Below, piece by piece: positions 323 to 62,015 of a stretch of DNA of 64,000 nt. The position numbers and the translations under genes were made by a program. The stretch spans positions 496,001 to 560,000 of the forward strand of contig OZ374564.1 in assembly GCA_977862235.1 (NCBI GenBank), given 5' to 3'. Source of the stretch: Dudresnaya verticillata. Its lineage: Eukaryota. The notes under the pieces were generated by a model, which saw nothing but the letters and a program-made list of their open reading frames with translations, ran no database searches and was not told where the DNA came from. Position 1 is the first letter of the stretch; every line of letters begins with the position of its first letter.

Positions 323-326
323 CACG

Positions 327-375
<49 letters not shown>

Positions 376-30346: not shown

Positions 30347-32088
30347 TTGGTTGAGATTATCACAAATATTGTTCAGTGGAGAGACGAGAACGATAGTCAA
30401 GATGAGCTTGCCTTTCAGAAATGCTGTTCAGAGGGGAGATGAGGACGGTACTTAAGATGAGCTTGCAATTTGGTGAAGGAGTCTGCAAGTTTTTAAGTTT
30501 CTTCCTTCGCGTTGGTTCTTATATAGCTTGCAAGTGAGAGCCAAAAAGCTTAGGGAAGATTTTTTCTTTGGAATCACTTAGCGCCAGCGTCAGGCATATT
30601 CACAAATTGATCTGACGAAGAGCACAGAGTGGAAGCTGAATGATACATCGACAGGGCAGAGATGAGGATCCATGTGGAGGTCGAAAGGTTGACTATTGTG
30701 TGAAAAGTTCTCCCTGACAGCAAGTCCGCCAATACAACAACACGGCCGCAAAGGATTTCTAAAGCGAGCTTCAGGGTCTTCCACCTCAAGATATTCGGAA
30801 TCACAGCAGTCAGATCGGATAATGAAGTGAATTCCAGGCAGCACTGAACCGTATTTGTGGTTGCAGGGAGCAACGGAGCAACATTATGGTAGTCGTGGAA
30901 ACTCTCAGTTGCTAGAGGAGCGAAGTGGTTCTGGATGCAACCTGTAAACAGCAGGGGATTGTGGTACAACCTATGTTGTTCAGGGAGAGGAGGGCTGCCT
31001 ACTAACAAAAGCGGTTCTGTAATCGTACAGATTAAAGTTCATGGTTAGCCTATCTAGGCCAGGCTTTTGTCGACACAGTCGGACTCAGCACATAACCGTG
31101 TACGAGAGTGGGCACCGATCTTTCTCCTGTCAGTGTGCATCCTGTATCAGAAGCAGTTGTAGGCATCAAGAAGGCCCCGACCAGAGCCAAGAGAGATTAT
31201 ATCTATAAGAAACAGTTGCTCCAGCGGTCGACAAGCCAAAGTCTCATTGGACAGAGAGTCCAAGGATAACAATGGGACATGCATTGCATGAAAAAAGCTA
31301 CGGTGTAGTATGTTATAATGTTCTTCTTGGAGATTGACGGGAAGTGTGAATCGGTTATACGAGAAGATTCCTCTCCGGCGCAGGTATTGTGTATGGATGG
31401 GGTCATAGAACAATGATTGCGCAACTTCAGCGTCAACAGCTCTTTGTCGCCTAGTCAGGTCAAGCACAAGCGAGCACAGAGCCTTGGACCCCTCACTGCG
31501 GCTGCCTGTTTCTGCTGTGCTGTTTTTTCTTGCCATACGTTTGTAGCTATCTGGCGGTGAGAGGGAACTCCTGTACACTCCGCAGACTAAAGCAACGCCA
31601 GCTTCGCTGTTGATCCGCGGAGCTCTGAGCCGGCGGTGCGAGAAATTATGGTACAGTTAAACGATGCATGGCACTGAACTGACCTTCGACCTCCCCAATA
31701 CGGTTCCCCTTCTCTCGCACTGAAGCGCGAGAGAGAATAGGTGTTACGCCTAGCGCTCGCACCTGTTCGGGAGCACTCCCTACAATGGGATCCCCACTCA
31801 CGACCGCAGCCCTGCACGTTAACTCCCTACAATGGGCGCCTGCCGGGGAACTGCTTGCCGACAACCGCAAACCCCAGAGCCGAACATGGTCAGCGCGCAC
31901 GGACCAGGTGAACCTGCACAAGGCAGAACTGCAAGTCTGACGATGCGCATTTGCGACCCTCCGGACAAGCCTCTACATTTTATTTGCTAACACTCACAGC
32001 CCCGTGACATGGTTGCGGTGCAAGGGGTGGGTTCGCACTTTTCCGTTCTGCGAGCATCTCTAAATCGAAATTCGTGTATGTGTGTGCT

Positions 32089-32285
<197 letters not shown>

Positions 32286-32368
32286 CTCTCTGTTGGTTCT
32301 CTTTCTCTTCGCTCTTGGCGCTTTCTTGTCCTCTTTGTCCGAAGTTCTCGGGCGCTTCTGTTTCCGAC

Positions 32369-33577
32369 ATGCCCGATTCCGCCAGAAACCCTCGTGCCCC
32401 CTCCACATCTACGCATCCGGACTCTAAGTCTGCTACATTCACCGCCCTCACACATGCAGCCATTGATTTCCTCAGCTTAAGTGCCCCCTTGTTGGCGACC
32501 GTCGATCTCGCTAACGACACCGCGATAGCTCAGTTCGCTGCTAGCCTGACGCAGTTGCCAGCTGTTCAAGGTTTACTTCCGCTGTTTCGCCGGGGAACCC
32601 AGTTCGGCGGTGTCATTCGCCTCTTATCGATTATCTCCGACCCTTCCGCCCATGTTATCTCTCCCGCCGCTGCTCCCGCCGCCTCTTCCCCAGATTCGCC
32701 TCGACCCTATCTCGCCGCCCTTTCCACTCACCTGCCCAAACGTCCTGTCGGCCAGCTTCCTATGCTTGGACGTCATGGAAATCAAGCTCCCACACATCCG
32801 TCTCAACAGCCTATCTCTCGTCGCCTGGAGAGTAATGTCCGCCGCATTAACCGCACCCTCGTCGGCTCACACGCTAAACGCTTTGTTAAGGTTTCTACTG
32901 CCGCCAACGCTAGTCCTTTCGACTCCCCCGCTCACTTCCGCTCTGCCCTGAAAGTTGGGGGCTTTCCTGGCCCTTGTTCAATCATCACCACGGATAGTGC
33001 ACGAGATTTCTATCTTTGTGCGGGGGCCGCAGACCTTCCTCATGTTGCTCCCGCGTATACTACATTTCGGGACTACGCGAAGGATGCTGATGCTGTTGTT
33101 GTCCCGACCATTTCGGTGTCGCCGGTCCTCGATTTGGCTATCTCCGTGACTGATTTAGACGATATCGCAGCCATTACTACCTCTCTCCGCACCGAAATCA
33201 CCCGACTTGAAGCCCCTGATTGTTCTTGGCGCCCTGCTCCCTTCTTCTCCGAAGCACTGCGCCATGTCGAAAGCTCTCTCTTTGCTAAGCTCGTCACGGC
33301 TGGTCGGGCGCAACAGGATCATGCGTTCCCGCTTCGCGAGATTCCACTCGCCGCCAAGCGACGTCGGTACGGGTTACCCCGATCTCGTCCTTCTGGAGAT
33401 CCTGTCCTCGATTGAGATGGGTTCCAGCTGGTTCGTCGCTCGAATCGTGATTCTGTAGATGCTCCGGCCTTGGTTCCTTGCCGTCCTGCAATCTCGTCCC
33501 GTTCGGCCTCCAATGACTGTCCTGGAGACATCCCCATGGACACAGCACCTGAACCCGTTCTTTCCAGCCACCAATGA
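32369..33577 (+). pseudogene. LINE ORF1 of unknown function, with one internal stop
   Basis: ATG 32369, TGA 33413-33415; the same frame stays open for 53 more codons to TGA 33575-33577. Confidence 0.55.
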
Positions 33578-36461
33578 CCTTTCCCACTGTGGGTGCTTGT
33601 CCTCCTCTGGTTGCTATTTGTGATACCCATATTCCTACTCTGACATACATCCCCAACTCTTTACGATTACCTGTAATCGATCTCTATTACTACCTGTTAC
33701 ATTCATTTAATTCTGCAAACACTTCTCTTCTCCAATACCAGGCATTTGAGCGTCTTCTTGCCACTCCGAAGTTGGTACTCCGCAAAAATGGTCGGTACGA
33801 GCCTCGCAACCGCAACAACCGCTCCTTGCACAACATTATTCGCCACCGAGTCCATCTGGCCATGCGCGGTGAATGGACTGAGTTATATTCTGAAGCTCAA
33901 GTTGCACATCTACGTTCACGCCTGCCAACAGCACACCTTCCTTCCTTTGCGGAGCTTCGCTTGAGACGCTGTCGTAATGCGTTCAGGGATGGCTCCTTAT
34001 CTAAAGCCTGTGCGATTCTCACCGAGGATTCGGTTCCTGCTCAACCCGCAGCACTCAACGCCCGTCTGCTTCAAGATTTACATCCCGCTCCGAAACGCCC
34101 TGTTGTTCCTCTTGATTCCATTCAGCTCCCCCCTGCGCTTCAATTTGAAGAGGCTGAAGTTCGCAAGGGTTTACTATCCATGCCAAGAGCCTCTTGTCCT
34201 GGCCGTGATGGCCTTCGTCCCGCTGTCTTCAAAATCCTAGCTTCTACGCCGGGTGGTTCCGATCCGTCGCGGTCTGTGCTGGCAGAGCTAACGTTGTTTG
34301 TTAACCATGCCGTCAATGGGCACTTGCCAGCAGCTTGTCATTCATTTCTAGCTGGTGGCACTCTCATCGGCCTCCCTAAGGTTAACAACTCTCGGTTGCG
34401 TCCTATAGCCGTTTCAGTGCTTCTTAGGCGTTTTATCAGTCGAAAAATCGCCTTTAAGGTTACTCGTGATCCTGTATTGCAGTCCTAACTCTTCCCTCTT
34501 CAACTTTCTGTAGGTGTTTCAGGGGGTGCAGAAGCGATCATACATGCTTCACGCTATTTAGCGACTCGACTACGTGATTTAGACATGGTACTCGTGAGCG
34601 TGGATGCTGCGAATGCATTTAATGCCATCGAGCGAAGCTTGATACTCTCAGAAGTGGTACTGCATTGCCCGGGTCTGGCAAATTGGATCCATTTTATATA
34701 CGGCCGTGGCTCCGTACTACACTTTGGATCATTCCTTGTACATAGTCGATCTGGCACTCATCAGGGTGATCCACTTAGCCCTCTATTGTTTGCATTGGTC
34801 CTGCAACCTCTCTTGTGTCTCCTTCGTACCCGTTTCTCTATGCCTTTGCAGGTATTCTTCGCCGATGATGGAACTCTCCTCCTGCCTCGCAGTATGCTCG
34901 GTTCAGTTCTTTCTTTCCTCGCAACGGAAGGATCTAAGATTGGGTTCCATCTCAATCTTTCCAAAACCACTGCTTGGTGGTGGCGCCGTCCCTCTGGAAT
35001 CCCTGTCACTACTAACGGGTGCCATGTTACTATATCTCACGATGATGCTCTAACTGTGCTCGGCTCTCCTATCGGACACTCTGCTGGTTGCCAAGCCCAG
35101 TTTCATTCCCGACGGGTCAGGGAAACACGTCTATTGGAAGCGCTTCCAACTCTAAATGACCCACAAATGGCCTATCATCTCTTGCGCTATTGCTCCGGTG
35201 CTTGCAAGCTGATCTATACCTTACGAACTGCCCCGCCGCATCTAACATTTCCTGAGGCCGATCTATTCGACCAAGGGCAGCGAAGGGCATTCGAACGTAT
35301 TCATCACTCGCTTCCTGACGATTCCTGGACTTGTGCGACACTCCCGCTTGAATATGGCGGGCTTGGCCTCACCTCTACTACCACGCTTGTCGAACTTTCC
35401 TATACCAGTTCTGTAATGGGGGTTTGGGATTTGTTCACTACTTTGATCTCGCCTACCCTTTCCATGTTCTCTCGCACCGACTCACGGCCGCGGAGTTTGG
35501 CTCGAACCTGTAATGCCCTGTGTACTCGGTTCGGATTATCTAGCGATTATCACTTTTCAACTCTCCTCTCTCGCACCCAAAAGCGAGGTTACATCCCCCA
35601 CTTGCAAGAAGAACTCTCCGCGAAGGTTCACGCTCGTTTGGTGGATAATTACTGGCCCTCCATCCGTTCGACTCAGAGAGAAGATCGTGTGAAAAGGGCC
35701 CGACTTCTCTCCTGTGGTAGTTTGGAATCTCGAATGGCCTTTACCGCATTCCCCGATCCACGCCGAGGCACCTCTGTGTCACCTGCTATATGGGCTACCA
35801 TGATCGACTTGCGTTTGGGCGCACCTGTATTTGCGCCAGATCTCCCTTGTTCTGCGTGTCTATCCGTTTCTGGTCGCGTGGTTTCCCTTGACCGTTTGGG
35901 GTATCATGCTTCGACATGTCCCTGTGCCCATGGGTCCACTCGTCGTCACAATTCTATTAGGGATCTCCTTTTTCTCGTCTCCGTCACCCGTCTATCGGGC
36001 TTTCTGTCACGAGAGAGCAGTCCTTTCATCTACAGGACGATCTTCGACGATTGGACTTGGTGTTGGATGATCCCGCCTTTTCTGATTCATGCATTGGTTA
36101 TGACCTTACTATTGTGACTCCCTCTACTGCTCGCGCTGTATCCAAGGCATCTGAAATTCCTGCAGGGGCCGCCCAAGTCGCTGAACGGGACAAGCATCGC
36201 AAGTATCGCACTGCTTGTGCAGCACATTGTATTACGTTTCAGCCGCTGGGATTCGACATTCACGGAGGCATTGGCCCCGAATGCCGTAGCGCGCTTCAAA
36301 AGCTCGCTTCTTTCCTGGCCACGCGCCGGGGAACAAATCCTACTACTGAATACCATTCGTTAGTTTCACCACTGGTTTCCCGCATTCTCCAGCTCACCGC
36401 CCTCGCCGTGAATCGTCGACGTCCCGTTAGTCCAGGCCTTCCAGTAGTCATCAGCGGCTAA
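33574..36461 (+). pseudogene. LINE ORF2: reverse transcriptase, zinc knuckle and REL endonuclease
   Basis: PGRDG, LRPIAV, QLSVGVSGGAEAIIH, DAANAFN, HQGDPLSPLLF, FADDG, LGSPIG, GGLGL, CSAC...HASTC, RRHN, LDL...GYD...AERDKHRKY. In-frame TAA at 34486-34488 and a frameshift in the T-run near 35970. Confidence 0.92.
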
Positions 36462-37077
36462 GTCATTAGGGTTTCCGCTGTTCGTCTTGCTTCAATAAAG
36501 TTGTGATGATGATGATGAGCATCTCTAGCGCGCAATGAAAAATCAAAGAGATACAATAATAGAGATAATAATATTATTTATTATTATTATTTTTACGCAA
36601 TAACGAAACTCGATAATTCAATCAAGGTTGGCGAGGGTTCAGAACAGCTGTCCTCGAATAACGAGATTTGCGTCTGGTGCCTTCTGAAATATATGCTATT
36701 CCGCGGATATAACGAATGCAAAATTTTCTAGCATGAGAGGGGGCGTCGAGATCTGCGTCGAGGCAGATGTAGTAGAATGGCCCTCGGCCAAGTAGTCGGC
36801 GATAAAACGGCGCGACAGCTGTCCTGGGGACAAACACTCACGGTGGGCGGTAGCTCAAAGGAAAAGGGAAAAGGGGTGTGGTAGAGACTTGTAATGGGTG
36901 TAATACCCAGGAACAAAGGAAAGGGAAGGCGAACCCTACAGCGTAGAGCAACCGTCGTAAAAGATAGGGCTTGTAGACGCCCAAGGCAAGGGAACAACGG
37001 TGGCAATGTAGGAAGACCAGAAAATCGGTACAGCCCAAAGCACACACGGCTGCCAGTTTAGTGCGGGGCCGCTGCTA

Positions 37078-38163
37078 CTCAGGGGCCCAATAAATACGGC
37101 GAGAAGCCGGAAATGCTACCAACTCTAAGTTAGAGTAATAATAGTGACAGTTACCTAATACTGTACACTAATGGTGGATTACAATCCAATGATATGAATG
37201 AGGGATAGTAACACTACGAGGTACAGGCGCACTGCTGTCTGGCGCGCAATGCCGAACATATGGGCGACCATGATTACTCAACCAATGGGACTCGGCCATC
37301 TCAACCATCGCACTCACGGGCGCCTCAGATCTTACAGGCGTCGTCTGCACCCATGTGTGTTCACAGCGGTCGGGCGCTCAATATTACACACGGCCCCCTT
37401 CTTAAAACTGAGCGACCCCGCTCAGTACAGCAACGCTGCTTCCAACGGTTCCGACCGTTGAGATATGAAATCTCGCCGAAACTATTGGCCCAGCCATGCG
37501 CGATGTTTCCGAAGTTATAGAAGCATCCGCCAACGTTCGCCGGCGCTTGCGCCAGATCAGCCTGGCAAGAGCTGTCGCCGGTGGCCCGCTTTTGGCGCCA
37601 AGACTTGTATCGACAACTCGACACGCCAGACGAGCGTCTATTTAAACCTCGGCGCAGAGCCGACTGTGTTCCTTTCGCGCTCTCGGTCATGCACCGCCTC
37701 GACTCGCAACCCCCACACTCCTGAGAGTCTGTCCTCTTCTGTCATCTCAGTTCCGACTCCCCTTCACCCTGTAATGCAACGGCAAGGGGGCCACTGAATG
37801 GAAGCAACATGTGGAATAATGAGCGCCCGAGCGCTGTAAGCACACACGTGTACAGACGACGCCTGTAAGGCCTGCGGCGCCCGAGGGTGCGATGGTTGAG
37901 ATGGCCGAGTCCCATTGGTTGATTAATCATAGCCACCTATATTCTGGCATTGCGCGCCAGACAGCCAGCGCGCCTGTACCTATTTTTGGCATTGCGCGCC
38001 AGAGAGCAGCGCGCCGGTACCTCGTAGTGGTACTACGACTCATTCCTATCATTGGATTATAATCCACCCTTAGTGTACAGTATTAGATAACTGTCAGTAT
38101 TATAACTCGAACTTAAAGTGGGTAGCATTTCCGGCTTCCCGCCGTATTTATTGGGCCCCTGAG
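37078..38163. mobile_element. Non-autonomous MITE-like DNA transposon with long imperfect TIRs
   Basis: Arms at about 37078-37390 and 37811-38163 are reverse complements; termini CTCAGGGGCCCAATAAATACGGC; TA on both sides (37076-77, 38164-65); no coding capacity. Confidence 0.85.
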
Positions 38164-38172
38164 TAGCAGGGG

Positions 38173-38901: not shown

Positions 38902-40803
38902 ATGTCGGAAAGTGGCTCCCAACGCGAGCTTCGTGCTCCCCCGGGTGTGCCGCCTCCTGTAGCGGCTTGGGTACGCCGTGTCAAGATTGACACCCTCGTA
39001 GCGGCTCGTAACGCCGCAAGCGACCTGCTCGAGACGCGACTAGCTGCACAAGCTGAAGTCGTCTCGAGCCAGAGTCGTGACCAGCTTGATGGTCTTTCCA
39101 AGAAGCTGGAGGCCCAGTTCAGGGCCGAACTTGAGAGCTCAGTACTCTCTTACCTTGGACCAGTCAAGGAGGACAACCGTCGACTCCTTGATGAGGTCAA
39201 GAACCTCAAGACGAGGATTGCTCCAATGGAAGCAGCTTCGCAGGCGAAGCCTGGGGGTGAAAACCCCCCGGCCGCGCCTGTGCCACCTATCGTGGCGCCG
39301 ACTTTGCCGGCAGATGCGCTGTTGTCGCCAGTGACAACTGAAGCGCTACGTCAGGCGGGGATTGACGTCCCGCAGGTGGACACGCTTGCGCGGGACACAC
39401 CACCCGTGGTCGCGGCGACAGTCGCCAAACCACCTGATAAAAGAGACGCAAAGTCTCCACCCCCACCCAGTGCCGACCGCAAGGCCGACGGGGCGGGTGA
39501 TCCGGATGAGGGTCCATCGTCATCTGACGATTCAGATGGCGGGTCCAAACGCCGGAAGGATAGACGCGATAAGCGTCGACGACGGAAGGACCGTCGTAAG
39601 AAGGGTTCACCTTCATCATCTTCGTCGTCGTCCTCCGATGAGAGGAGCGACGACGAAGAGGAGGAGCAATTCCTCGTCCCTGACCCGACCTTGGGTCCTC
39701 GGCAGCATGGTTTGAGTCGGTGGAAGCCGACCGATCATCGCTTCCAAGCGGTTTTCAATTACCGCGTGTACAGGCTGGAGAGACGCAGACAGAAGGTAAC
39801 CAAAACGGTTATCCACGACACTCACAAACGTGTCAAGATCTTGGAGGTTACCATGAAGGTCCACAAGTTCTCGGGTAAGGACCCGATCAAGGTCATCAGC
39901 TTCTTAGCTCGATGCAAGCGGGACTTCGACGTCGCGGACCTCTCGGAGGCAATGGCATTCGTCGCCCTGCCGTACATGTTGCTGAAACAAGCAAAGGAGG
40001 CTTATGAAGCCCAGGCAGGTCACTTCCGCCAAGGATATGGCCTTAGGAACTGGCCCGAAGCAGTTAACTGGTTGCTCAGGACGTATGCAACGAATGCGGC
40101 GATCCAGGAAGCAGTGTGCGAACTGCGGGAGGTCAAGCAGCTCCCTGGTGAGGCGGAGCAGGTGTACGCCACCAGACTGGACAAAGCAGTCACGAATTGT
40201 GGTGATGTTCACTCACCTTACGAGGTCTCCACGATGTATATCGAGGGATTCGTACCGCAAGTCAGGCCGTTGGTTCTCCAGGCCAGGGAGGATAACCCCC
40301 TGTTGAGCTATCATCAGCTCATTGCCCAGGCCCGTTCGCGATGCGAGGCACTTCGAGCCGCCCAAGGCTCCAAACCCATGAAGGGTGTTGCGTTCAAGCA
40401 ACAAATGGCAAGGAAAGTCCTTGCCATTGAGTCGGATAAAGACCCGACGAGCCACTACGGCAGTACTCTGCAAACGCAGACACGTGCCGGCACGGTTGAC
40501 TCCCGTGAGGAGGGATGTTTCCTCTTCGGTGGGTATAGTGAGGCCGATTCATCGGCCAAGCCCCCCACTGATATTCCCTCCGACCGGGAAGACGACCCGC
40601 TCTTCTACCAAGAGCACAGGAGGCAGGGTAGGTACCCACCTCCGCAGCGACGCGAGCTGCATCGGCCGCCGGGGAGACCCGGCAGGCCAGGCGATAGGGC
40701 TGTGTTTGGTGACTATCGCCTGCGTGGACCCCATGTGCAGATCATCTGCCATGGTTGCTACGTGGCGGGCGATCACATCAGCCCAGATTGCAAGTTGCCT
40801 TTG
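38902..40803 (+). pseudogene. gag: Gag polyprotein, cut by the insertion; resumes at 61871
   Basis: HKFSGKDPIKVISFL, WPEAVNWLLRTY, VKQLPGEAEQVYATRL, CHGCYVAGDHISPDC; the frame rejoins as CKLPL|ADIAQVV across the insertion. Confidence 0.85.
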
Positions 40804-41350
40804 AACACGCATTTGAGCGATTTCAGAATACGACTCTCGAAACAGACTGCAGTCGAATAGCTATTTTCTGATATCGTTGGAAAGGGGAGCGTCCCCTGAG
40901 TACGGTGGTGAAATTCGATTGGCTAACGGACCATTCCTTCCAAAGTTATGGCGGTTTGCGTGAATTTACCCAAAATATTTCCAGGTATTCTGAATTTCAA
41001 TTTCCTTGCGTCGATTTGGCCCGCGCGGCCCACTCCGCGGTCCGCACTGGGCCAAATTGGAAATTGCCGGCCCGCAGCATGCCCCTCGCCGCGCGCGCTG
41101 CATGCGCGCCGCATCGCCCATCTGGCCCGCCCCACGCGTGCTCGGCGCCGCCTGCAGACTACCCCGTCACCAGTTTTCGGCTTTCTGATGCAACGGGTGC
41201 ACTGTGCTGTGCGCGTCTGTGCACAAATCCGCACGCGACCGCATACAGACTGCCTCGTCACCCGCCGCCCCGCCCCGCCCCGCGACGCACAACTCCTTGG
41301 GCAAAACCTGCTGTCGCGGTTGCCCACCCTCGTGCACACCGTGGATCCCG
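40804..41350 (+). repeat. Left TIR (547 bp)
   Basis: Reverse complement of 61324-61870; about ten substitutions seen by eye; starts AACACGCATTTGAGCG. Confidence 0.95.
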
Positions 41351-41352
41351 AT

Positions 41353-41448
41353 TCTCAACTAACCCCTTTACTGTTCTTGCTACCTACACATCTGACCCAG
41401 CTGGGTCAGATGTGTAAGTAGCAAGAACAGTAAAGGGGTTGGTTGAGA
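41353..41448. repeat. 96-nt loopless palindrome
   Basis: Centre CCCAG|CTGGG at 41400/41401; two mismatched pairs. Confidence 0.95.
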
Positions 41449-42101: not shown

Positions 42102-42900
42102 ATGACGGGGTTTGTGCATGCGTTGACAGGGTCGGACCCAGAGCAAGTTCGGCTAATGTCAGAGGTGGTCGTCCTCGCTGGTCTACAGGACAGAGTTGTT
42201 GGTAGCGTGTCGAAGAAGGAGTCCCACCTGCAGGTGCACACACACCATGGTTTCAAACAACCTGCCGCTGCATCGTGCGTTCTCGGTGTTTTTGTTCGAT
42301 ACCAAGGGGCGCATGCTTCTCCAATAACGTTATTGCACTTAACGTTATTGCACGTAGATACCAAGGGGCGCATGCTTCTCCAATAACGTTATTGCACTTA
42401 ACGTTATTGCACGTACGTGCAGCGAAGAAAATCACCTTCCTGTCGTTCTGGACGAAAACTGTATGCGCTCATCCGCTCCACACGCCTGCTGAGCTTGTTC
42501 GGCAGGACAGTGGAGATGCGCTTGCAGGGGTCATGCGTGCTGCCATTCGGAAGCTGTCTCATGAGCTAGCTCGGTGTCAAAGAGGGAGAGGTCGGTATGG
42601 ACGACCTGCACTACATGACTCGCATTCATTACCGTGCTGAAAATGACGGAGGGGTGTGGGGTGAGCATGAGATTGATTACCTGTTCATGGGCGTGAAGGG
42701 CGTAGCGCTGTAGCGATATTGCTCCTGAACAAAACGACCTACGAGCAGTACGCTATGTCACTCGAGAAGAATTGAAGGGGCTTTTCAAGGAGGCGCAGAT
42801 TTCCTCGACTCTTCGTCTTACGCCTTGGTTCTACCACATTTTTGAGGGTTTTTCCTGGCCTTGGTGGGACAAGATGCTGAAGGGGGTATAAATGAACTCG
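42102..42900 (+). pseudogene. IDI: Isopentenyl-diphosphate delta-isomerase (type 1) fragment, frameshifted
   Basis: Across frames: DPEQVRLMSE, SKKESHL, LHRAFSVFLFD, KKITF..FWT..CAHPL, AAIRKLSHEL, MTRIHYRA, WGEHEIDY, LTPWF...WWD. Confidence 0.9.
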
Positions 42901-44292: not shown

Positions 44293-46505
44293 TTGAACAT
44301 AACTTTCGCCCTGCCCCCTGCGAGATATCAAAATTTCTCTCACGGAATGACATTGCTCACGGGTATGTTCTTCTTAACGCTCACTATCCTCTATGGAATA
44401 CGGCTGTTGAGACAAGGGCGCAGAAATATTACGCATGAGCAGGTTTGGGTCTTCTTCCTCGATCTCATGGCATTCCTCTCCTTCAACCCTCTTCATGCCA
44501 TCAACCGTCTCATAGAAACAAATGGTGGCGAAAGCACATTGGATTACAGTACCTTCCCGGATTGGTATAACAATTGGGATGTGGCCAATGATGTGCTGCG
44601 TGATGTGGCCTTTGCGGGATTCTCTTACTTCTACCTTTGGCCAAGCCTGCACTCTTACCGCATTCTGGAGGCCACTAAGCGATTGGGATGGGGCTTCTAT
44701 ATCCCAAAGTTGCTCGTGCTTATCCCGTACGTTGTCTCCAAGTTTGTGATTGTGTACGTGTTGGACATGACCCTGTCTGAAGTGTCTATGCTCTCAGCTG
44801 CTTCTTTCTCGTTCTACTTCAGCGCGTATCAGGTGTGGAGCCATTTGAAGGTAGAGCTCCTCCTCTGTATCCCGTTTTCAGTCATTGAATTGCTGTTCAT
44901 CGCAATTATTGGGTATGAGGCATGGAAGACAACCAATGTGTTGGAGAAGGCACCATACATGAAGCATCGGTGCAAACGGATTGGATACAGGTTTTTCCTG
45001 TATACCAAATTTGTTTTCTACCCTTTGTTTATTGGTCTGAACACTAGTCTGCTGTTTAGCAGACCGAAAGGTGAAAGTATCGTTCCTCTGGTTTTTGGCT
45101 TCAACATGGCGAGGGCAGATGTGATATGGATTTATACGCACGGCCCGGGGCTTTTGGTGCCGGGTTAACCCAGCACGTGACTACTTATGTTCATCTGCCC
45201 GATATTTGTACCGGGGGTGTGAACGCGTTTTTCAGAAGCGTAGAACTGGGCGAATCTGGGTCTCGATGGTCATTCAGCAGCTCAGACTCATCATCGAGTC
45301 AGCAAGCTTCGAAGAACGGCCTCAAGTACCCGTTGCCTGAAAAAGACGTCACATGAGCCCATGATGAAGAAACCCCCCGCTCTGTTGTTGACAATGATGA
45401 CGAATTAGAACAAGAAATCGTTGAACCGATTACGTACAGAAAGAGAGAGTCGAAGGACAGTCTTGAGCTGAAAGCAAACTGCTTTACGATGTAGACGCAC
45501 GTCATTATGTTCAACTTTGCATGGTATGTCTATTATTATGGGACTGCAAAGTTGGACGGCTTCATTCCTAGAGAAAAACCATTGCCATTTGAGTATGAGA
45601 TCATTGCTGCTGTGAGCATCGAGGCAACATATACTCAAGCACTTGTTGGTGATTGCAGTGACAGGATCATTGTGACGTTCAAGGGAACAACGTCAATGCG
45701 AAACTTGAAGACGTCATTACGGATGAGCCATGAATATATTCGTAATGTGGTGAAATCAAGTGTCTATGGTGAAGATGAGACGACTCGATTGAAGCGATTA
45801 TTCGGCAGAAGATATCTACACGGTAATATTCACAAGGGATTTGCGATTGCCTATAAGAGCGTTGCAGATGAAGTGATGGAAGTGGTGCGGCAATTAAGAG
45901 CAAGAAGATAAAGACCGGTCTTCTTGACCGGACACAGTCTAGGAGGTGCACTCGCAACAATCTGCAGCCTGGATCTATGTGTGAAGTTGGATGTGAGCCG
46001 ACGTGAAATTTTCGTGTCCACGTTTGGATCACCTCGAGTCGGGAATCACGACTTTGCAGGAGTGTACAAAGAAGTGGTGCCTCTGCACTGGCGCATAGTT
46101 GTGGATGCAGACATGGTTGCCAAGTTACCAAACGTGGGGTACACTCACCTCGGGAAGAAGGTGGTGCTGACTCCGCACGGAGAGATGATTATCGACCCCA
46201 ACGCATTGGAACAGCGGCCATGGACAGGTGAGACGGCCGGTTTTGCATATCACCGCAAGGCGAGCTACATGCTTGCAATGCGGGCATGGAGCGTAAGGAA
46301 TCACGGGATGACATACACACCCGTATTCTGGCCGTTCCCGGTGCGACCCGAGGACAAGCGGCGGTTCGCTGGGGCGTTCCCAGAGGAGGAAGATGCGGCT
46401 GGGCGCAGGGTGGCTTCTAAGATCATTCGCATGGACGCGATGGGGGATGCACCTAGCGCAGGGGACACGGAACTGGCGAATATGAATACAGCAGCACAGA
46501 AATGA
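44293..46505 (+). pseudogene. Multi-pass membrane region (TMEM181-like) fused to a class-3 lipase, with several stops
   Basis: Hydrophobic helices with EQVWV...FNP; then IIVTFKGT, IHKGF, TGHSLGGALAT, TFGSPRVGN, DMVAKLP; broken into at least three ORFs. Confidence 0.85.
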
Positions 46506-48220: not shown

Positions 48221-50900
48221 ATGGCAGGTGAGCCTTCTACACCCCCTGCTGCTGCAGTTGCTCAGACCGCGTTGGTTTATACCCCGGAGCGTCCCGCCCG
48301 TATGTGCCCGCGGCCGTACCAATTAGAGGGCAAAGAAAACACAGAAGCTGGGTTATCAAAACTGGAAAGTAATGACGCGGCGCCGCGTGGGAGCGCTCCA
48401 AAACCACCCGACGCTGAACGGGAGAAAGTAGAATCCGAGAACGGCGCACAAGAAGACAATGATCCCGTCGACACTACAGCATAAGCATGTGCGGGAGGTC
48501 GTGATCACGCTTCTGAAGAAGAGCATCCTGACGTCGGGACTGCAGACGATGGGGAGGATGCTGATTCCGACACGCTGGAATGCCACCCCTCCGAAGGGGA
48601 GGAGATGGCACTAGAAGGGCGTGGAGGCGGCCGGGCTAGTGCTAGGACGAGCGGGAAGAGGAATTATAGACATGATGCTCGTCCGAAAGGAACACCATCG
48701 GGGCATTTGATGGCTACGAAGTGGAGAAAGGTAGTGGAGGTTATGGAGATGTAGGATATCTCAAACATTTTCTGCTGCCAAACGAAACAATGCTTCGGAA
48801 CCATCGAGTCAGTCTACATCAGGGCTGAGTCACGCAAAATGATGGACAAGAATCCCACGGAAAGGAAGCGATACCTCACGGGACTACTGGAATCCAACTC
48901 CAACATGTACTTCTTCAGCGGGCGGCCGGTTTGTTACTCATCTCTGGACAAGGCTTTCGTTTTCTCTAGAGACCTGCAGTCGGCGGTGAAAGGAACGAAC
49001 AAGAGCCGCGAAAGGAAAGGGAGGGGGCTCATAGTTGGTGGTACTTCTACGGAACAGATGGAGGTGATAACGTCGTTCTTGGAGCGCCTCGCAGAAGTGT
49101 CTGGTGATTCGCAACCAGACAAGGCTGAAATCCACCTCCCCTTCCATGAGAAGCTCGAATTCTATAACACGTTTGTGACTGAGCACCGCACTCTGTACCC
49201 TAACAGAGCAACACCATCACAGAGCTACTTTTATAGTATCTGGCTCCGCAGCTGTCCGCAGATTAAGGTCAGGCGAACTCACCGGTTTGCAAAATGTCCC
49301 GAGTGTGAGGAGATCAAAGCTCTTCTCTCAAAAGCGGCAACGGATCTAGCGGGAACCGAAGAGCTTCGCGAGCGGCGGGCAAGGTACGTGATAATGTTCA
49401 TGCCGGAGCGAACAGAATATCGCAAGAAGTGTGAGATGGCTTCGATGTATCCGAGGAACTATTGCTCACTCATCATCGACGGTGCTGACCAGTCCGCATT
49501 TGGACTGCCACACTTCCACATCAAGGTGAAGGACACACGCGGACACGGAATGAAGGCCAAAGTAATCGGCGTTTTAGAGCATGGCCAAGTCCCACATCTA
49601 AACCTTTTCACGATGACTGCCGAGTTCGAAACAGGCGGAAACCATGTCATCGAAGCTTTGCATCGCGTATTGATGGCACGCAGAGACAGGATGCCACTGA
49701 AGGGTACTTTGTTCCCCCAGGTCCACAACTGTACTAGGGAAAATAAGAACAGGTTTATGTTCGGCTACTTGGAGTATCTCGTTGCTATGGGTGTATTTCC
49801 GGAAGTGCATGCGTCGTTTCTCCCCATCGGTCACACGCATGCCGATATCGATCAAGTTTTCAGCTGCATTTCGAAGAGATTACACGTTCGAGACGCCATT
49901 ATCATGGACGACCTCATGCACGAACTACGGCTATCATACACTCCTCAACCGCGTGTCACGGAGATGTTGCACATTATAAATTTCGAGATGTTGCACATTA
50001 TAAATTTCTCCGGGTTGTGCAAAGAGACCAGATGCCTCGGGTGTACAGAGCCCATTTAAGAATATCGGTACTTTCGGTTCAGTGCGGAAGGAGTCAAGGA
50101 CACAGACACCGGTACGTTCAAGACTCTCTGCGAAGTGAAGAGGGGCTGCAAAGACTCTTGGAAACCGTTACATACGCGAGATGGCCAGGGGGGATTTTTG
50201 TTATTTCCCCCCAACCTGCACCGGACTCCACCGACTCCCTGTCGAGCACCGCCAGATGAACACGAAGTAACGAAGCGTCTACGATCCGCCGAGACCAGAA
50301 TCAACAATCACAGTAAGCTACAGAAGCTGTTGGCACTTCGTGATAGAGTTTACGAGGACCGTGAAGACCCATTCCACTGGGCATTGGCGGATGTGTTTGA
50401 GTTGGAAGGGGCTTACAAACCGGATGGGAGCGGCCCTAGCGCACTCTCGGAATCGGGGTCAGACGCTGAGAATGTAATGGAACAGGACATCACTTACACA
50501 AAGAACAGCTTTGTAGCCGTACTATGCGACGACTGTACCGAAGGATGCCCGTTCTGGCTTGGGCAGGTGATGAATTGGGAGACGGCCGGGGGGGCAAGGT
50601 TACCAATTTGCAAGTAGAGTGGTACGAGAGAAGGAGTACTCGAGGGAATACTTTCACCGGGCGTTATCGGAAGGCGAGAATAACCGATGGAAAAATGGAC
50701 ATGTCAAACCGTGGAGCGATACGGTCCCGAGGAAGTCGGTTTTAGTGGATTTCGCGCGTTTAACCAACTCTGGAATACCCGTCAAAGTGCAGCGAAAGAT
50801 CAGGGAAGCCCTAGAGATGCGAAAGAGAGGACAAAATCCGGAAATTAGTACTTCTGTAGAGGCGGGGGGACCAGGAGAAAATGGCATGCAAAGCAAATAG
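48221..50900 (+). pseudogene. DDD/E-type transposase, Sola-like/DUF7869-type, decayed
   Basis: One frame from 48221 to about 50590 with stops at 48482, 48752 and 50057; CCQTKQC, FAKCPEC, IIDGADQ, QVHNCTRENKN, FLPIGHTHADIDQVFS; frameshifted tail FVAV...PFWLGQV...WYE...PWSDTV. Confidence 0.8.
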
Positions 50901-52770: not shown

Positions 52771-53461
52771 CGAGAGGGGAGGATGGACCCGCCAAGTAGT
52801 GCGGGTGAATGCGGTAGCGGACGAGCAATTTTGTCGGCGGGTGTGGTGTAGGCGACAAGTGCGACGCAGGCACATGCGCAGAACGGCGATTGCGCTTGGC
52901 AGCGTGCGGGCGCAACGAAGGATGGCGTGATGGTGTGTGCGGCGGCTTTGGTGCACGTTTGTGAGATTGTGCTAGGTATGCCGTCAAAGCGACCGCTGGG
53001 CTTGACTTTGGTGCAGACCTGTGCCCGCATCCCACGGCACGTTGGGCGAAGCAAGATGAAAATGCATCGCAGTAAGAAGTCGTTTACGTAGAAATAATGA
53101 CAGACACGGCCAGCACGTTCGGCGTGAAGTGGGCGCAGCCAATGCTGCCAATGTGTGCAATAACAACACACCGCAACACAAAGCGCACCGGCACGTCGGC
53201 ACGGGAAGCGGGGGCGTGCATAACTTGCGCGGTGACCGCGTGGAGGGTTGATGTGGTGAGGTTGCGGTGCGTGGAGACATGCTCCGCAGCAGGCGGGTGA
53301 ACAGCAACCGGATAGCTAATTCAGTGAGACTTCCGCCGGAGCTATCGGCGCATATGGATATTTTTTGTAGCTCCCTGTCGCCGACAGATTCGAAAAGCTA
53401 TTTTCTTAGGTTTCCCATCTCGGCGACTATGGGAGCTATGTAGCTAACGGAATGCCGCGAG

Positions 53462-53563
53462 TGTAAATATCTATTTTCTTACGTATTTTGATTTCGGGAA
53501 ACACGGGAGCTATGTAGCTCCCGCAGAGGAGGAAATCAAAAAGCTAAGAAAATAGATATTACA
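53462..53563. repeat. Imperfect palindrome of about 100 nt inside the element
   Basis: aatatctattttctta/taagaaaatagatatt, ttttgatttc/gaaatcaaaa, core cgggagcta-tg-tagctcccg. Confidence 0.85.
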
Positions 53564-54628
53564 TTTCTCCAGCGCCATTAGCTATTGGCTGATATCCATA
53601 TTCGTTTATAGCTTTTCACTTTGTTCCTCCGGCGTTTGCTACTTTTCCCGAGACGCCCAGCCGCACCGCTCCGAGCCCGACATCATCTGAAAACGCACTG
53701 CCACTCAAGAAAACGCATACCACACAACACCAGCGCCCTTGACAAGGGCAGCACACGACTGGAACCCTTTTCACAGCGTAGGTCGAGCCCTCGCCCCCGC
53801 CCCGTCCCCACTGCTTCCTCTCTTCGCATCCGGTGTCGTGCTCGGTTTAGCGCTCGCTGCAGATGATGGCTGCGTGGGCGGCGACTTTGTTCCGCTTGGA
53901 GGGTCCGTCGGCGTCGGTGCTTGTGATGTTTGTCGTGTGTAGCCGCCAGGGATTTTCGGCCGTGCGCGGCCGTGCGCAGCCATAGCCGAAAGAGACGATG
54001 GCAATCTGCATAGGACGCCTGTCAGCTGCATACACTACGAGCTGTGATAGCCCAACGCCTGGATATGAGGGAGGCCCCGCAGCCCTCCGCATGGAACGAG
54101 ACGAGATGGGAGCGCATAAAGTCCATGGCGGGCTGGCCACCGACGATGCGAGTCTGGCCGGCGCCCGGGGGGCGACGTCTAGCAGGAAGACGGGGCAGTC
54201 TGCATAGTTGCGCGCAAACATGAGTTCCTTGCGCGTGCCGCGAAGGGAGAGACAAGCGTTGCTGCTGTGATGGAAACCATGCGCTTGCTGAAGAAAACAA
54301 CTGGCATCGAAAACTTTGAGAAGGCGACCAGTGGGCATGATGCTGAAAGTAGAGGAAAGCGAGAGTTGCTACTGCGACTGGTTGCAGACGATGTTTTACG
54401 CGTTGTTGATGAGCTGAGAGACTTGCAGAAGGTAGCTTCATAGATGATGAGAATCACCCAATGCACACGGAGGGCATGCAGCCGTTTCATGTTTCACGGC
54501 GTTTGGTCGCGACGAGCGTACATGGATGCCATAGTTCCTTCCAGCTGGAAATGTGCAGTGGACCGTCCGCCGCCCTCGACTGGCAGAACGTGCATCCGGT
54601 ATAGCCCAAAAATAGATGGAGCAGACTT

Positions 54629-57559
54629 TTATGGCTCTCTATCACAACCCTCCATCATGTGAAGATCCCATGCGAAGAATGCGTTTAAGTCTCGCAGCAG
54701 TGCTGGCGGTTCCTCCGGACCCTTAAAAGTGTACTTATACGGCCTCTCCGCGAACTCATCGCGAACTTTGAAGGAAAATACAGCCACGAGATGCTCTCCC
54801 TCCTTGCCGAGCTCCCGCAACCCGTGCTGGTGTATTTCTGTCTTCAGTCCGTGGGCGTCGTTACCCGATTGCAGTACTGCCTTCCCAACCTTATCTGGAC
54901 CACACAGCAGCCAAACTGCGTCACCACCTTTGAGTTGCGGTCGATCGCATGATAGCCTTTTCTGCCTAGGTTTTCCTGTACGTTTCCCAGACTGTTGCTT
55001 ACCTGGGGACATCATTAGAGTCTTTGATTCCCTTTCAGACTGATCAGTGCGTACCCTCTTCGTGTCTGGCTGTTTGTCTATCTGTTTTGCCGAACGCTTC
55101 TGTGCTTGGATCCCTGCATCTTGAGACGACCCGTTCTGCTCCTCCTCTGCCATGCGGTGCAGGCGTGCACGAGCCAGTCTGTATGTTTCCGGGTTTCTTT
55201 CGACAAGGTAACACTCTCTGTCTGTCCGAACGCAGGCAATGCCTGTAGTCATTGTCCCCGCATGATAGTCTAGGACCGAGCCGCCTTCAGGGCAGAAGGT
55301 TGTGATGATCTCAGTAAGTGCATCAGGATTTTTCTCCTCTGTCAGAACTGGTGCCCTGCTAGTCCCTGGCTTCATGAGCTTATCTCTGGGTACGGGAACA
55401 GAGGTCATCACAGCAAACTTTCGTCGCTCCTTACACGAGATGAAGTGGTACGGGCTGGAGAGGTCTGGAGAGAAAGCGTTCTTGGATGTACCCTTGCGCC
55501 TTCCGAAGGCTGCTGCCTCAGCCCCATTCTGCAGTCTCTTCTTGCGACTTATCTGGACAGTAGTTGTGTCTTTGCAGAGTAAGAAAGGGTACTGCGGACT
55601 ATCAAAATTGTTGTCGGCAAGTGCCTTTTGAAACAACGGGAATTTCAAGAAGCTGCAGAACAGAAACACCCAACCACCCTCCTTCACAACACGTCCACAA
55701 AACTCGCAAAGGCGCTTCATGTCTTCTTCACTGAAATGGTTTGCGTATGCAGTTCCAGCAATTGACATTCCCTTCGGGGTACCATACGGAGGGTCAGCAA
55801 GCACGAGGTCAAAGAGAGGACTGCATTCATTCCTGATTGATTGGTCATATTCCTCCCACTTCATCTGATATGTTCGTATCCTGCATTTGGAAAGCGGGTC
55901 CTTCTCCTGCACATCAGAACCGGTATCCAGTCTCTCCGACTTGCGTGTTGAAGAAACAGAACGACTACCCGGTCCAATACACTCGTTCGGGATGTCATTA
56001 TTACCAGCTAATGCGCCTGTGTCGTTGTCGTCTGTAGGATCCAGGACCGATTGCGTATTCTGCCTCTGCGTGTCAGTTACAGTCTCCTTAACGGCTTCCG
56101 ACTGCTTTTGGTCACCAACGGCCCCCTTAGAGTCTTTTCCTTTCCCCCCTTGAGGTTTTCTATCAACTTCAGAGCTCGTGTTATCAATATCAGAAGCTGA
56201 AACTATTGGCTTCTCATTTTCTCCTATGTCTGGAGATGTATCTTTCCCAGAATCAGTTTAGGCTTGGAACTGGTGCTTGAATTTCTTTTCCTTACCTGGA
56301 GCTTGTTGCGGGCATTCCCTTCGATAAGCGGCTATCATTGGTTTGAGCACATCGTGGTCATTTCCGAAGTTTGCACGCACCTCGTGGTACAGCTTCGTTG
56401 AGTGAAGGAGGTTCTGGCGAATGACGTTCATACCTTCAGGCCAACTCTGGCTCTCGATAAGGCGTTCCAATTTCCGTGCTTCCTTCATTGCTGCTTTCGC
56501 CCTTCCAAATTGTTCCAGAGTCTGAAAGCTGGTGACTGACCGGAAACTCTGAAGTCGATGTACTTCGCGTAGTCGGTACAAAGTTGAAATCTGTATTTCT
56601 ACGCCATCCTCCAGTTTGTTCCCATTCATGAAGGCGATTGCAGACTTCAGTGATGAAATGTGGATGAACTTTCTGTAGACTCGGCAGTCAATTATTCTCA
56701 TTGCTCCGTCCTTGTCGAGTGTTGTCCCTTCCTTGTCTCCTGTCATCTTTGCAGCTAGATCCGGTCTCTCCTCATTTGCAATTTGTCCAATTGCGTGAAT
56801 TACTCTCGTATCCAACCGCATAACTGTCTGAGCAGTCTGTTTAATGGTGTTGTTCCGATATAACTTCGAACCGTCATACGCCTCCGCAATTTTTGGGGCA
56901 TTTGGTTGTTTCCCAGTCTTGGCCTGCAACCTCTCCGCCTCCTCCCGCAGACCGCGGACCAGGTCAAAAAATGTAGTCTCGATAAAGTATCCCTGGTCGT
57001 GTTTCTCATTCTGATGTCTTGCCAGCTGCCGGAGCTCATGGACGTTGTGCCCACCCTTCAAAATCGTTACAGGCCATGCGAAAGACTGCCAGACTGTTGG
57101 GAACTCCTCCATTAACTCCAAAATAACGCAATGTCTATGCAAGCCGTCAACAATGCCGTACCATTTGGAGCGATTGTTTGCCTTCTCCAAAGCCTTCTCC
57201 TCCGTGCACTCCTTCCCTTCCCCTTTCATATTCTTGAAATACGCAACGACGTGACCCCGCAGAGACCCTGTCATTTCGATGACAATTGCAGAGTCAGACC
57301 CCGCAACGTACCCAATAGTCCCTTCACCGCCTTTCTTCTCTGATGAGTGCAGATGAATGCGAGCTTTGAGGCGTTCCACTCCGGAGCGCACCACGGGTCT
57401 TATTGCTGTTAGCGGGAAGTACGCCCTGGGGTCAATTCTCATATTCACGGAACCCTCCATAACGTCAGAAAACAATGCCCTCCCCATGCTTGCAGAAGAG
57501 CAATTTTGGTCCGCTTCAGATTGCGTAACAGAACCCTTTCCTGAACGTTTCTTGCCCAT
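54629..57559 (-). pseudogene. ParB-like domain fused to a beta-class N6-adenine/N4-cytosine DNA methyltransferase; one in-frame stop
   Basis: ORFs 57616-56258 and 55912-54629 share a frame and the 115 codons between them are open; only TAA 56258-56260 interrupts. ParB-like YGIVDGLHRH; MTase DLVLADPPYG precedes EEKNP...GSVLDYHAGTMTTGIAC...R.CYLVE. Confidence 0.85.
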
Positions 57560-58693
57560 CCAGCCAAAAATGTAATTCAGCACTTTTGAAAAAACGGTCG
57601 CCGTAAGTCTTTCCAACTGGTTGCCGAAGGTGTTTCCAACTGGTTGCGTTAAGCTGATGAGAACGGGATAGGCGTTGCGGTTTCCACGAAGAGCACTTCG
57701 GGTTTACAACAATATGTCCGTAGTCAGGTCAGTGGTCACGGCATTGAAAGACAATATATATCATGCCGGTTTCCAGCTTTAACCTGGAAACGAAGTTTGT
57801 CCGCATGACTAACAGCCTCACGTACGGTTTTAACTTTGCCGGAAAGATAGTTAGAGCACTGTACCACTGGTGGTGCCCTGATACATTCCGCGAGATTACA
57901 TGAAGCTACAAATCACTGCAGGGTTCTATTGGTCGTCGGTAAATATATCGACGTATTGTGCCGTAGGGGTGTTCGCCCTAAGTTCGTACTTTCTCAGAAA
58001 ATATTTGGAAGTCAGTTCTAACCATCCAACCGTACAGTGATTCCGATTCACAGCTGCCCTACTAGGGTATCTAAACGATGCTCAAGGCGGGTAAGAAATG
58101 GGCATACGAAATAGTTCCACAACGTGGAGGGGAAATTGGAAGTTCGTGTGCCTGCGTAGGCACACTCCCTTGGACTGGGGGTGATGTGGACGATTCGCAA
58201 ACGTACAGTCATTCCGATTGTACCAACCTGAAGGTGTTCCTCAGAAACGATAGGAATAGCCTCGGGTTTTCGAATTGGCAAGAGGTTACGGTCCGCCCAC
58301 ACAGAGTCGTTTAACATTGACATTTCCTGAAACCTGCGCCTCCACCCTGCAGATATGGTCATCATAAGACCTCTGCAGCACCGAAACAAACTGATGATCA
58401 CAATCTGCCATCGGATGCCACGACAAACGTAAGTATGCGTGTTACCCAATGATGCAAGTAATATCAAGGTCAGGGAAATGATTAATACCATACGTGAGAC
58501 CATAATACAGCCTGTACCAGTGTGTCCAAGTGATCCCTGTAAATACGTTCCAGAATTGTGCACAGGTCAACATGTCCTCGTTCTAGCAATACAGAAAAGC
58601 CCTATTCTGCGGAGGTTTAGACAGTCTGATCTGCGGTTCCACCTAATATCTGGGCGGTGTATGTGAACTATCCAGCAGCTTGAGGCTGCATTT

Positions 58694-61323: not shown

Positions 61324-61870
61324 CGGGATCCACGGTGTGCACGCGGGTGGGCAACCGCGACAGCAGGTTTTGCCCAAGGAGTTGTGCGTCGCGGGGCGGG
61401 GCAGGGCGGCGGGTGACGAGGCAGTCTGTATGCGGTCGCGTGCGGATTTGTGCACAGACGCGCACAGTACAGTGCACCCGTTGCACCAGAAAGCCGAAAA
61501 CTGGTGACGGGGTAGTCTGCAGGCGGCGCCGAGCACGCGCGGGGCGGGCCAGATGGGCGATGCGGCGCGCATGCAGCGCGCGCGGCGAGGGGCATGCTGC
61601 GGGCCGGCAATTTCCAATTTGGCCCAGTGCGGACCGCGGAGTGGGCCGCGCGGGCCAAATCGACGCAAGGAAATTGAAATTCAGAATACCTGGAAATATT
61701 TTGGGTAAATTCACGCAAACCGCCATAACTTTCGAAGGAATGGTCCGTTAGCCAATCGAATTTCACCACCGTACTCAGGGGACGCTCCCATTTCCAACGA
61801 TATCAGAAAATATCTATTCGACTGCCGTCTGTTTCGAAAGTCGTATTCTGAAATCGCTCAAATGCGTGTT
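61324..61870 (-). repeat. Right TIR (547 bp)
   Basis: Reverse complement of 40804-41350; ends CGCTCAAATGCGTGTT. Confidence 0.95.
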
Positions 61871-62015
61871 TTTGGCAGACATTGCCCAAGTAGTTGTGAA
61901 CTACAACAAGTTGTCTGCTAAGGACAAGACCGTGTCTGCTGACTCATACATGAAGTCACTGGCACTGCTGAACTTCCAGGCCAATTAGTCCCTCAAAGAG
62001 GACGGGAGTGCCCAG

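Follow-up and report, generated by a model that had tools for sequence, protein, structure and literature searches.

A putative ParB-like/DNA methyltransferase fusion gene, interrupted by one stop codon, in a transposon-like inverted-repeat unit of Dudresnaya verticillata

Described systems and the present locus

The described systems closest to the gene reported here come from red-algal DNA transposons, phages, chlorophytes and chytrids, haptophytes and retrotransposons. The gene lies on the minus strand of a 64,000-nucleotide (nt) stretch of Dudresnaya verticillata DNA (NCBI GenBank assembly GCA_977862235.1, contig OZ374564.1, positions 496,001 to 560,000 of the forward strand), hereafter the window, in whose coordinates all positions are given. 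We think it probable that this gene encoded a single protein joining a ParB/Srx-type module to a beta-type N6_N4 DNA methyltransferase (MTase), that it belongs to a 21-kb transposon-like eukaryotic unit with inverted repeats, and that the one TAA codon by which it is broken is most likely a recent nonsense mutation.

According to the available part of a report on Bostrychia moritziana (10.1101/2025.02.11.637652), giant Plavaka (EnSpm/CACTA) and other red-algal DNA transposons carry the cargo genes PAG1 to PAG3. PAG1 is listed there as unknown, PAG2 combines PF01555 with a SET domain, and PAG3 combines an N-terminal region that is ParB-like by HHpred (best hit 7BNR_B, E 0.29) with a 2OG oxygenase and has inverted-repeat arrays beside it. 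As far as that part of the report goes, the window gene is like PAG2 and PAG3 in probably being cargo of a cut-and-paste-type element in the range of 17-21 kb, and it shares PF01555 with PAG2 and a ParB likeness detected by remote homology with PAG3. The ParB-like gene has inverted repeats as neighbours in both systems; 7bnr_A is also among the Foldseek rows obtained with the N half of the window protein. The descriptions nevertheless set them apart, because the two N-terminal modules are fused in the window protein whereas PAG2 and PAG3 are two proteins. Neither SET nor 2OG families were found by Pfam in the window protein or in the two sets of 54 and 48 homologues scanned. The transposase in the window unit is moreover of the DUF7869 type and not of an EnSpm Pfam family.

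A survey of the ParB-CTPase fold (PNAS 2025, PMC12704722) states, in the portion available, that N6_N4 MTase fusions are enriched in phages. The window protein is like these phage and prophage ParB-MTase fusions in having the same pair of domain families, in one protein, in a mobile element. Unlike the phage fusions as that portion presents them, it has an additional beta domain at its C-terminus and a linker that is long and disordered, and no sequence kinship with them was found. Using tblastn, the N half gave no match in 50,697 phage records, while the MTase half matched 43 of these records (21-28% identity among the 15 matches listed), and the three matches inspected were stand-alone methylases of 254-278 amino acids (aa). 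Pattern scans yielded 304 candidates in viral contigs and 53 in one genome per prokaryotic species, none of them confirmed as relatives, and 267 candidates in metagenome contigs, one of which was confirmed on a 2,262-bp contig without context. A first-pass annotation, made from the sequence alone, had called the gene phage-like; this description stands for the family and its architecture and fails for close kinship, as no close phage or prokaryotic relative appeared in these searches. The phage likeness seems to be an architectural resemblance, with descent not demonstrated.

In eukaryotes, ParB-HTH modules fused to a "chlorophyte-type Dam" of group 2 (M.EcoKI/M.TaqI-like) are described from chlorophytes and chytrids, and clade 6 MTases whose source is phage ParB-Tls loci and which are fused to an FHA-fold domain are described from haptophytes, in the sections available of Iyer et al. 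(PMC4738411). Like these eukaryotic genes for adenine methylases, which descend from prokaryotes or phages, the window gene is linked to a ParB module. It differs from them in that chlorophyte-type Dam does not belong to the DpnA-like unpermuted group and clade 6 has no ParB fusion; in those sections, neither case is described as transposon cargo. According to the accessible text of a further report (10.64898/2026.05.21.726589), DAM-type methylases are carried by long terminal repeat (LTR) and other retrotransposons. The idea of prokaryote-type adenine MTases that exploit active chromatin linked to N6-methyladenine (6mA) is common to that system and to the one considered here, but the carriers are retrotransposons, and PF01555 and ParB are absent from that text.

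What is already known, to the extent that these sources were available, is thus a pair of separate PF01555 and ParB-like cargo genes in red-algal transposons, and the fusion is apparently undescribed. No description of the fused family was found in full-text searches of the literature; preprint supplements might contain one. Few transposons are known to have genes directed at the chromatin of the element itself. The fusion of a ParB-like module to an adenine-type MTase suggests a simple route to self-marking, in which an element would bind its own DNA and then methylate it, and those family members that keep the canonical motifs could be used to ask directly if mobile elements place 6mA on their own DNA.

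Reading frame, domains and homologues

The gene is read from the ATG at 57559 to a terminal TAA at 54631-54629 in the reverse translation of 57700-54629 (Table 1). Its frame holds 977 codon positions, namely 975 sense codons, one in-frame TAA at codon 434 (56260-56258) and the terminal TAA, in agreement with the first-pass annotation of one frame of roughly 975 codons broken by a single stop, which gave no strand. By contrast, the two alternative frames of the same stretch contain 42 and 60 stops. Stop-to-stop prediction yields two open reading frames (ORFs) at the locus, 56258-57703 and 54629-56257. The ATG at 57559 is the first in frame, and the homologue P0001 begins at the aligned position. 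The 115 codons between the internal TAA and the start of the MTase fold are all open, for which the chance is about 0.1-0.6% at 0.043-0.061 stops per codon, the density in the other two frames. The code used in the window is the standard one; the host genes, which end in TAA, TAA, TGA, TAG and TAG, are free of internal stops.

Table 1. Features of the ParB-like/MTase gene, of the inverted-repeat unit and of other interrupted ORFs in the window
Feature	Position	Strand	Basis or remark
Whole gene: ParB/Srx-like module, linker, beta-type DNA MTase, C-terminal beta domain	54629..57559	-	Frame, stops, full-length homologues
N half, 433 codons: ParB/Srx-fold domain, then all-helical region	56261..57559	-	
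DGLHRH (DGxHR; phosphate-binding arginine motif of the ParB/Srx/DndB group), residue 138	57131..57148	-	
Internal TAA where the variable linker begins, six codons past the conserved block APGKEKKFKHQF	56258..56260	-	Alignment with 18 full-length homologues
Low-complexity inter-domain linker, open for 115 codons, no ATG before the Q-M-K-W block	55913..56257	-	
Beta-type N6_N4 DNA MTase domain	55127..55912	-	PF01555, AF2 model, Foldseek
DPPY, motif IV, residue 589	55784..55795	-	
TEEKN	55328..55342	-	
VLDYHAGT, motif I, residue 762	55253..55276	-	
Conserved C-terminal all-beta domain, about 105 residues	54632..54946	-	AF2 residues 323-427, five strands
Tandem repeat of a 23-nt unit (2.3 copies), 37-88 nt before the ATG	57596..57647	.	
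Nested palindromic region of about 270 bp with GGGAGCTATGTAGCT twice, about 1 kb downstream of the gene	53340..53613	.	
Left terminal inverted repeat, 547 nt	40804..41350	+	98.2% complementary to 61324-61870
Right terminal inverted repeat, 547 nt	61324..61870	-	
TTTG just outside the repeats, candidate 4-bp target-site duplication	40800..40803 and 61871-61874	+ (first copy)	
DUF7869 DDE-transposase-like ORF, with one TAA	48755..50617	+	PF25273
TAA of the DUF7869 ORF	50057-50059		
TAA of the reverse transcriptase ORF	34486-34488		RVT_1 scores across the break
TAA of the class-3 lipase ORF	45909-45911		Lipase_3 scores across the break

Both halves of the frame are held in one uninterrupted chain by homologues, which bears out the earlier proposal that they form one protein. 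When the read-through frame (X at the stop) served as query, a word-based search returned three relatives, and two of these, of 887 and 944 residues, cover both halves without interruption; uninterrupted full-length homologues include P0001 (887 aa), P0002 (944 aa), P0004 (967 aa) and others. The number of cluster representatives collected by a HMMER profile scan was 4184 at E<=1e-3, 734 at E<=1e-10 and 209 at E<=1e-30, and a length of at least 750 aa was found in 48 of 150 representatives among the matches listed. PF01555 follows the N domain in 44 of the 54 homologues scanned. Judged from these sequences, a large family has the fusion of a ParB-like region to an MTase as its standard architecture.

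No Pfam family, ParBc and its clan included, matched the N half of the window protein even at E<=10. An AlphaFold2 (AF2) model of this half, built with 69 sequences, had a pLDDT of 89.6 and a pTM of 0.86, and in it a ParB/Srx-fold domain, which covers approximately model residues 47-208, gives way to an all-helical region that reaches to about residue 450. Two independent structure searches with the model were headed by ParB/Srx-fold proteins only. Foldseek gave no match at E<=1e-3; its ranks 1 to 11 were all ParB, Noc or PadC, followed by KorB, pNOB8 ParB and sulfiredoxin. The alignments with pNOB8 ParB-N (model residues 47-378) and Spo0J (76-372) extended into the helical region, with a root-mean-square deviation of 4.7-4.9. 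The DGxHR motif that had been reported near the N-terminus is present as DGLHRH, and its D and G are near-invariant across the 69 sequences. Over the DGxHR stretch of the homologues, sub-threshold matches were obtained to DndB (one of 54 homologues, P0016, E 5e-4, and five of 48 in a second set) and to GmrSD_N (two of 48), both of which we take to be Pfam families of the ParB clan. In the Protein Atlas, AIPR-family clusters scored 0.92 with the N half, a weak lead only, as the recognition value of 2179 is below the mark of 2300. We accept the N half as a predicted ParB/Srx-fold module with modest structure scores, and by its sequence it is nearer to the DGQHR/DUF262 kind than to partition ParB. 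The ParB likeness assigned to the N-terminus in the first-pass annotation is thereby supported at the level of the predicted fold and not by a ParB Pfam profile.

PF01555 (N6_N4_Mtase) matched the MTase half over profile positions 2-219 of 221 with an E value of 4.6e-12 and 46.8 bits against a cutoff of 26.7, and the DPPY, E-E-K block and motif I segments are all present. The DPPY had been placed at 55784-55795, which is exact, and it precedes VLDYHAGT, as expected from the proposed beta-class order; beta class is the name used for MTases in which motif IV comes before motif I, and PDB entry 1nw8 (M.RsrI) carries "beta class" in its title. When family profiles were compared with PDB sequences, the matches were 5hek (M1.HpyAVI, deposited as "DpnA"; E 9.3e-18), M.BceJIV 8urk, CcrM 6pbd, TTHA0409, M.RsrI, M.MboIIA and M.PvuII. 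The AF2 model from 55912 to the end of the protein has a mean pLDDT of 83.0 and consists of an MTase at residues 1-262 with high confidence, a disordered segment at 263-322 and an all-beta part at 323-427. With this model, Foldseek found 191 PDB matches at E<=1e-3, headed by CcrM 6pbd_B (E 2.8e-14). M1.HpyAVI reached a TM-score on target of 0.72-0.83 (up to 0.83 for 5hfj), and the other leading matches were M.BceJIV 8urk, the rotifer N4-cytosine enzyme N4CMT 8s9m, M.MboIIA and M.RsrI 1nw8. In fold, motif order and DPPY the window domain is like M1.HpyAVI 5hek/5hfj, M.BceJIV 8urk, CcrM 6pbd and M.RsrI 1nw8, with which it shares 16-20% identity (HpyAVI, BceJIV and CcrM) or 14% (M.RsrI). Unlike these solved enzymes, it has M for the last G of motif I and forms part of a 975-residue protein with several domains, carried by a eukaryotic element. 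Its assignment as a beta-class amino-MTase was therefore confirmed by the profile match and the predicted MTase fold, so that by Pfam and by the modelled fold the C half qualifies as a beta-type N6_N4 DNA MTase, and motif IV before motif I together with D-P-P-Y would fit an adenine-N6 enzyme.

The all-beta domain that ends the protein has pLDDT values mostly between 85 and 95 and is conserved in P0002-P0006, P0028, P0035, P0036 and others. No Pfam family matched it.

From the domain content only, we infer that the function of the family would be a self-directed adenine methylation guided by the ParB-like module. In intact copies, this module, with a DGxHR domain of the nucleoside triphosphate (NTP)-binding type and a helical DNA-binding region, would bind the DNA of the element, perhaps at palindromic repeats. 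The fused DPPY MTase would thereby be brought to adenines of the element, which it would modify at N6, and the methyl mark on the element's own DNA might favour its expression or protect it. A speculative candidate for a binding site of the ParB-like module is the nested palindromic region at 53340-53613, which folds as DNA with -62.5 kcal/mol (z -8.8, none of 200 shuffles as stable) and to which the exact GGGAGCTATGTAGCT motif is confined within the window. An element-wide array of parS-like palindromes was not found, only local clusters at 42325-42412 and 53340-53613, and no ParA-type family was present among the Pfam-scanned ORFs of the 21-kb unit. In a far bolder version, to which we give very little credence, the members of this unnamed large family would be ParB-type NTP-gated clamps that load at element-specific palindromes and carry the fused adenine MTase along the element, as a spreading, self-targeted writer of 6mA by which the transposon stays in permissive chromatin; in many lineages the enzyme half would since have become non-catalytic, and the single TAA, found once in each mobile-element gene of the window, would be a read-through switch between ParB-only and ParB-MTase products.

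The internal TAA and competing explanations

The position of the internal TAA speaks for a fusion gene that has been broken. In the alignment with 18 uninterrupted homologues, the 12 residues just ahead of it (GKEKKFKHQFQA) fall on a conserved K-E-x-K-[FY]-[KR] block, and the variable low-complexity linker begins right at the TAA. The two terminal inverted repeats of the unit have diverged by 1.8%, and the probability that a substitution in this ORF creates a stop is 0.034-0.043; from these two values about one nonsense mutation is expected since insertion. In keeping with this, the DUF7869 and lipase genes of the unit likewise have one break each. The TAA is most likely a recent nonsense mutation, and the window copy most likely a dead one, from which no more than the 433-residue ParB-like half could be made and which would be unable to methylate. 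The fusion claimed in the first-pass annotation is consequently sound for the family, while in the window copy the TAA would keep the fusion protein from being made. The value of this copy is that of a pointer to a large fused family, not of a working example.

Several observations weigh against this interpretation, among them that the two repeats are taken as the ends of one transposon on the basis of a single copy. Four alternatives were considered.

The alternative that survives best, although we consider it unlikely, is that in vivo the MTase-like domain does not act as a DNA adenine methylase, being either a non-catalytic DNA- or S-adenosylmethionine (SAM)-binding module or an N4-cytosine or RNA enzyme. 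Motif counts were taken from an alignment of the window protein with 48 long homologues, 47 of which have the N region. DPP[YF] is kept in only 14 of the 48, the other 34 having EPPS, ALPS, DPFQ and the like, from which it follows that catalysis is not a requirement for the family at large; DGxHR is preserved in 16 of the 47, and both motifs occur together in nine. Moreover, motif I reads D-x-x-x-G-T-M-T-T, with A-G-T-M-T-T in the window protein, whereas solved relatives have G-S-G-T-T, of the FxGxG type; the last G is replaced by M or L throughout the family, and because of this deviation SAM binding by the MTase half is not assured. Enzymes forming N4-methylcytosine (4mC), namely N4CMT 8s9m and M.PvuII 1boo, are also among the structural matches. 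Against this, the window protein, P0001, P0002 and P0004 keep the adenine-type D-P-P-Y, and the top structural matches are N6-adenine DNA enzymes. In the available sections of Iyer et al. (2015, PMC4738411) it is S at the first position of the DPPY motif that is linked to N4-cytosine. In addition, a midpoint-rooted FastTree phylogeny of the 49 sequences (columns with at least 40% gaps removed) placed the window protein with P0001 and P0002 in a clade in which every member has both canonical motifs, whereas EPPS, ALPS or DPFQ occupy motif IV in other clades. Judged by its motifs, the lineage of the window protein looks catalytically competent, while much of the family is probably not, and the motif-degenerate members suggest repeated conversion to non-catalytic modules. 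Such members would provide a natural series for studying the role of the module without catalysis.

An improbable second alternative is that the locus holds two natural genes, the TAA being the end of a ParB-like protein and the MTase being made separately or not at all. In its favour, the closest relatives of the window N half are ORF calls confined to that half (P0011, P0155, P0156 and P0157; 46-52% identical, 501-540 aa) that end inside the linker, and there are ORF calls confined to the C half (P0028, P0035 and P0036) that start in the linker. However, these half-only calls sit on short contigs with prokaryote-style gene calls, which are blind to introns or sequencing breaks, and those limited to the N half end 30-100 residues further on, not at the position of the TAA. 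Past the TAA, the earliest ATG encodes the M in the conserved Q-M-K-W block, and a separate MTase would therefore be without conserved N-terminal residues, and the 115 linker codons before the MTase fold are open in the same frame. P0001 and P0002, which group with the window protein in the tree, are uninterrupted. All this argues for the broken fusion over two genes.

It is still less probable that the TAA is removed by splicing. A 66-nt phase 1 spliceosomal intron at 56295-56230 would restore the fusion, and it has a consensus-like donor (CAG|GTAAGG) and acceptor (CTCCAG|A) and a length that is a multiple of three. Yet GT/AG pairs at such spacing are common by chance, and the intron would comprise the sequence encoding GKEKKFKHQFQA, that is, the coding block conserved in 18 homologues; it is disfavoured because splicing would delete these conserved residues. 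Introns also appear to be rare in the host genes of the window, which are long single ORFs (6PGD 540, PFK 627, CorA 456 and LSM14 538 codons).

The remaining point against a simple nonsense mutation concerns all four long mobile-element ORFs of the window, those of the ParB-like/MTase protein, the reverse transcriptase, the class-3 lipase and DUF7869, each of which is broken exactly once and always by TAA. With the codons of each ORF, the probability that a new stop is TAA is 0.24-0.31, and the joint probability is 0.005-0.009, a post hoc value from simple substitution models; the pattern hints at something systematic and is of interest beyond the ParB-MTase locus itself. Read-through or recoding of TAA in the mobile-element genes, as a switch between ParB-only and ParB-MTase products, would match this pattern and the fact that two of the four TAAs fall within a Pfam domain whose match spans the break, but we find it hardly credible: the pattern was spotted post hoc, the host genes 6PGD and PFK terminate with TAA at the point where their homology stops, no tRNA genes (nor Rfam families) were found in the window, we know of no read-through motif like the TAA-A stop context at 56258, and one stop per gene is the expectation for neutral decay at about 1%.

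Three systematic causes were considered and rejected. Decay resembling repeat-induced point mutation does not agree with TpA/ApT ratios of 0.5-0.7 and (CpA+TpG)/(ApC+GpT) ratios of 1.1-1.4, found alike in the element and in host genes. Decay by CpG deamination does not agree with an observed/expected CpG ratio of about 1.0 in host genes and mobile elements, which gives no sign of methylation-driven CpG loss. An alternative code with TAA as a sense codon is at odds with the ends of 6PGD and PFK and with the uninterrupted host ORFs. The mismatches between the inverted repeats are half transitions and half transversions.

The inverted-repeat unit and the rest of the window

The unit that contains the gene spans 40804-61870 (21,067 bp), with its two terminal repeats 19,973 nt apart. 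The TTTG found on both sides is a 4-base match that would occur at a fixed position with a chance of 1/256, several registers having been inspected. Joining of the flanks at the repeat ends formed no single ORF for any duplication length tried, which is uninformative. The DUF7869 ORF matched PF25273 with an E value of 2.3e-41, or 4e-41 when read through its TAA. In the Protein Atlas its look-alikes were eukaryotic DUF7869 clusters, one of them with PF07592 (DDE_Tnp_ISAZ013) on 11% of its members, and a PDB sequence search returned only chance-level NSF rows. Because the window contains LSM14/FDF, 6PGD, PFK and CorA genes along with reverse transcriptase, gag and chromo domains, it is eukaryotic. 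The eukaryotic transposon setting named in the first-pass annotation is in keeping with the 547-nt repeats, the flanking TTTG, the DUF7869 gene and the eukaryotic host genes, and the transposon status of the 21-kb unit is well supported, though not proven.

Within the unit, several ORFs have no family match. The DUF7869 ORF has an exact 24-nt tandem duplication at 49961-50008, which is in frame and repeats the residues EMLHIINF. A class-3 lipase gene lies at 45495-46505 on the plus strand; read through its TAA, it matches Lipase_3 over positions 1-138 of 140 (E 6.8e-28), with GHSLGG just past the TAA, and it could have been captured from the host or be additional cargo. A 96-nt near-perfect palindrome (41353-41448), made of two 48-nt arms that are 96% complementary and have no spacer, adjoins the left terminal repeat on its inner side, and the right end is without a counterpart. 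An exact 59-nt tandem duplication at 42298-42415 contains four copies of TAACGTTATTGCAC, which includes the palindrome TAACGTTA.

Outside the unit, a retroelement region extends over 31991-36461 and is strongly asymmetric between the strands, with a GC skew of -0.29 and an AT skew of -0.33 over 32-34 kb; its RVT_1 match spans an in-frame TAA. Between this reverse-transcriptase element and a gag-like ORF, nested inverted repeats at 37069-38172 (192 nt, 90%, and 133 nt, 86%) make up a hairpin-like unit about 1.1 kb long. The first 2,000 nt of the window (1-2000) have 72% G+C, contain imperfect repeats rich in GCC and CCG, and are open in several overlapping frames.

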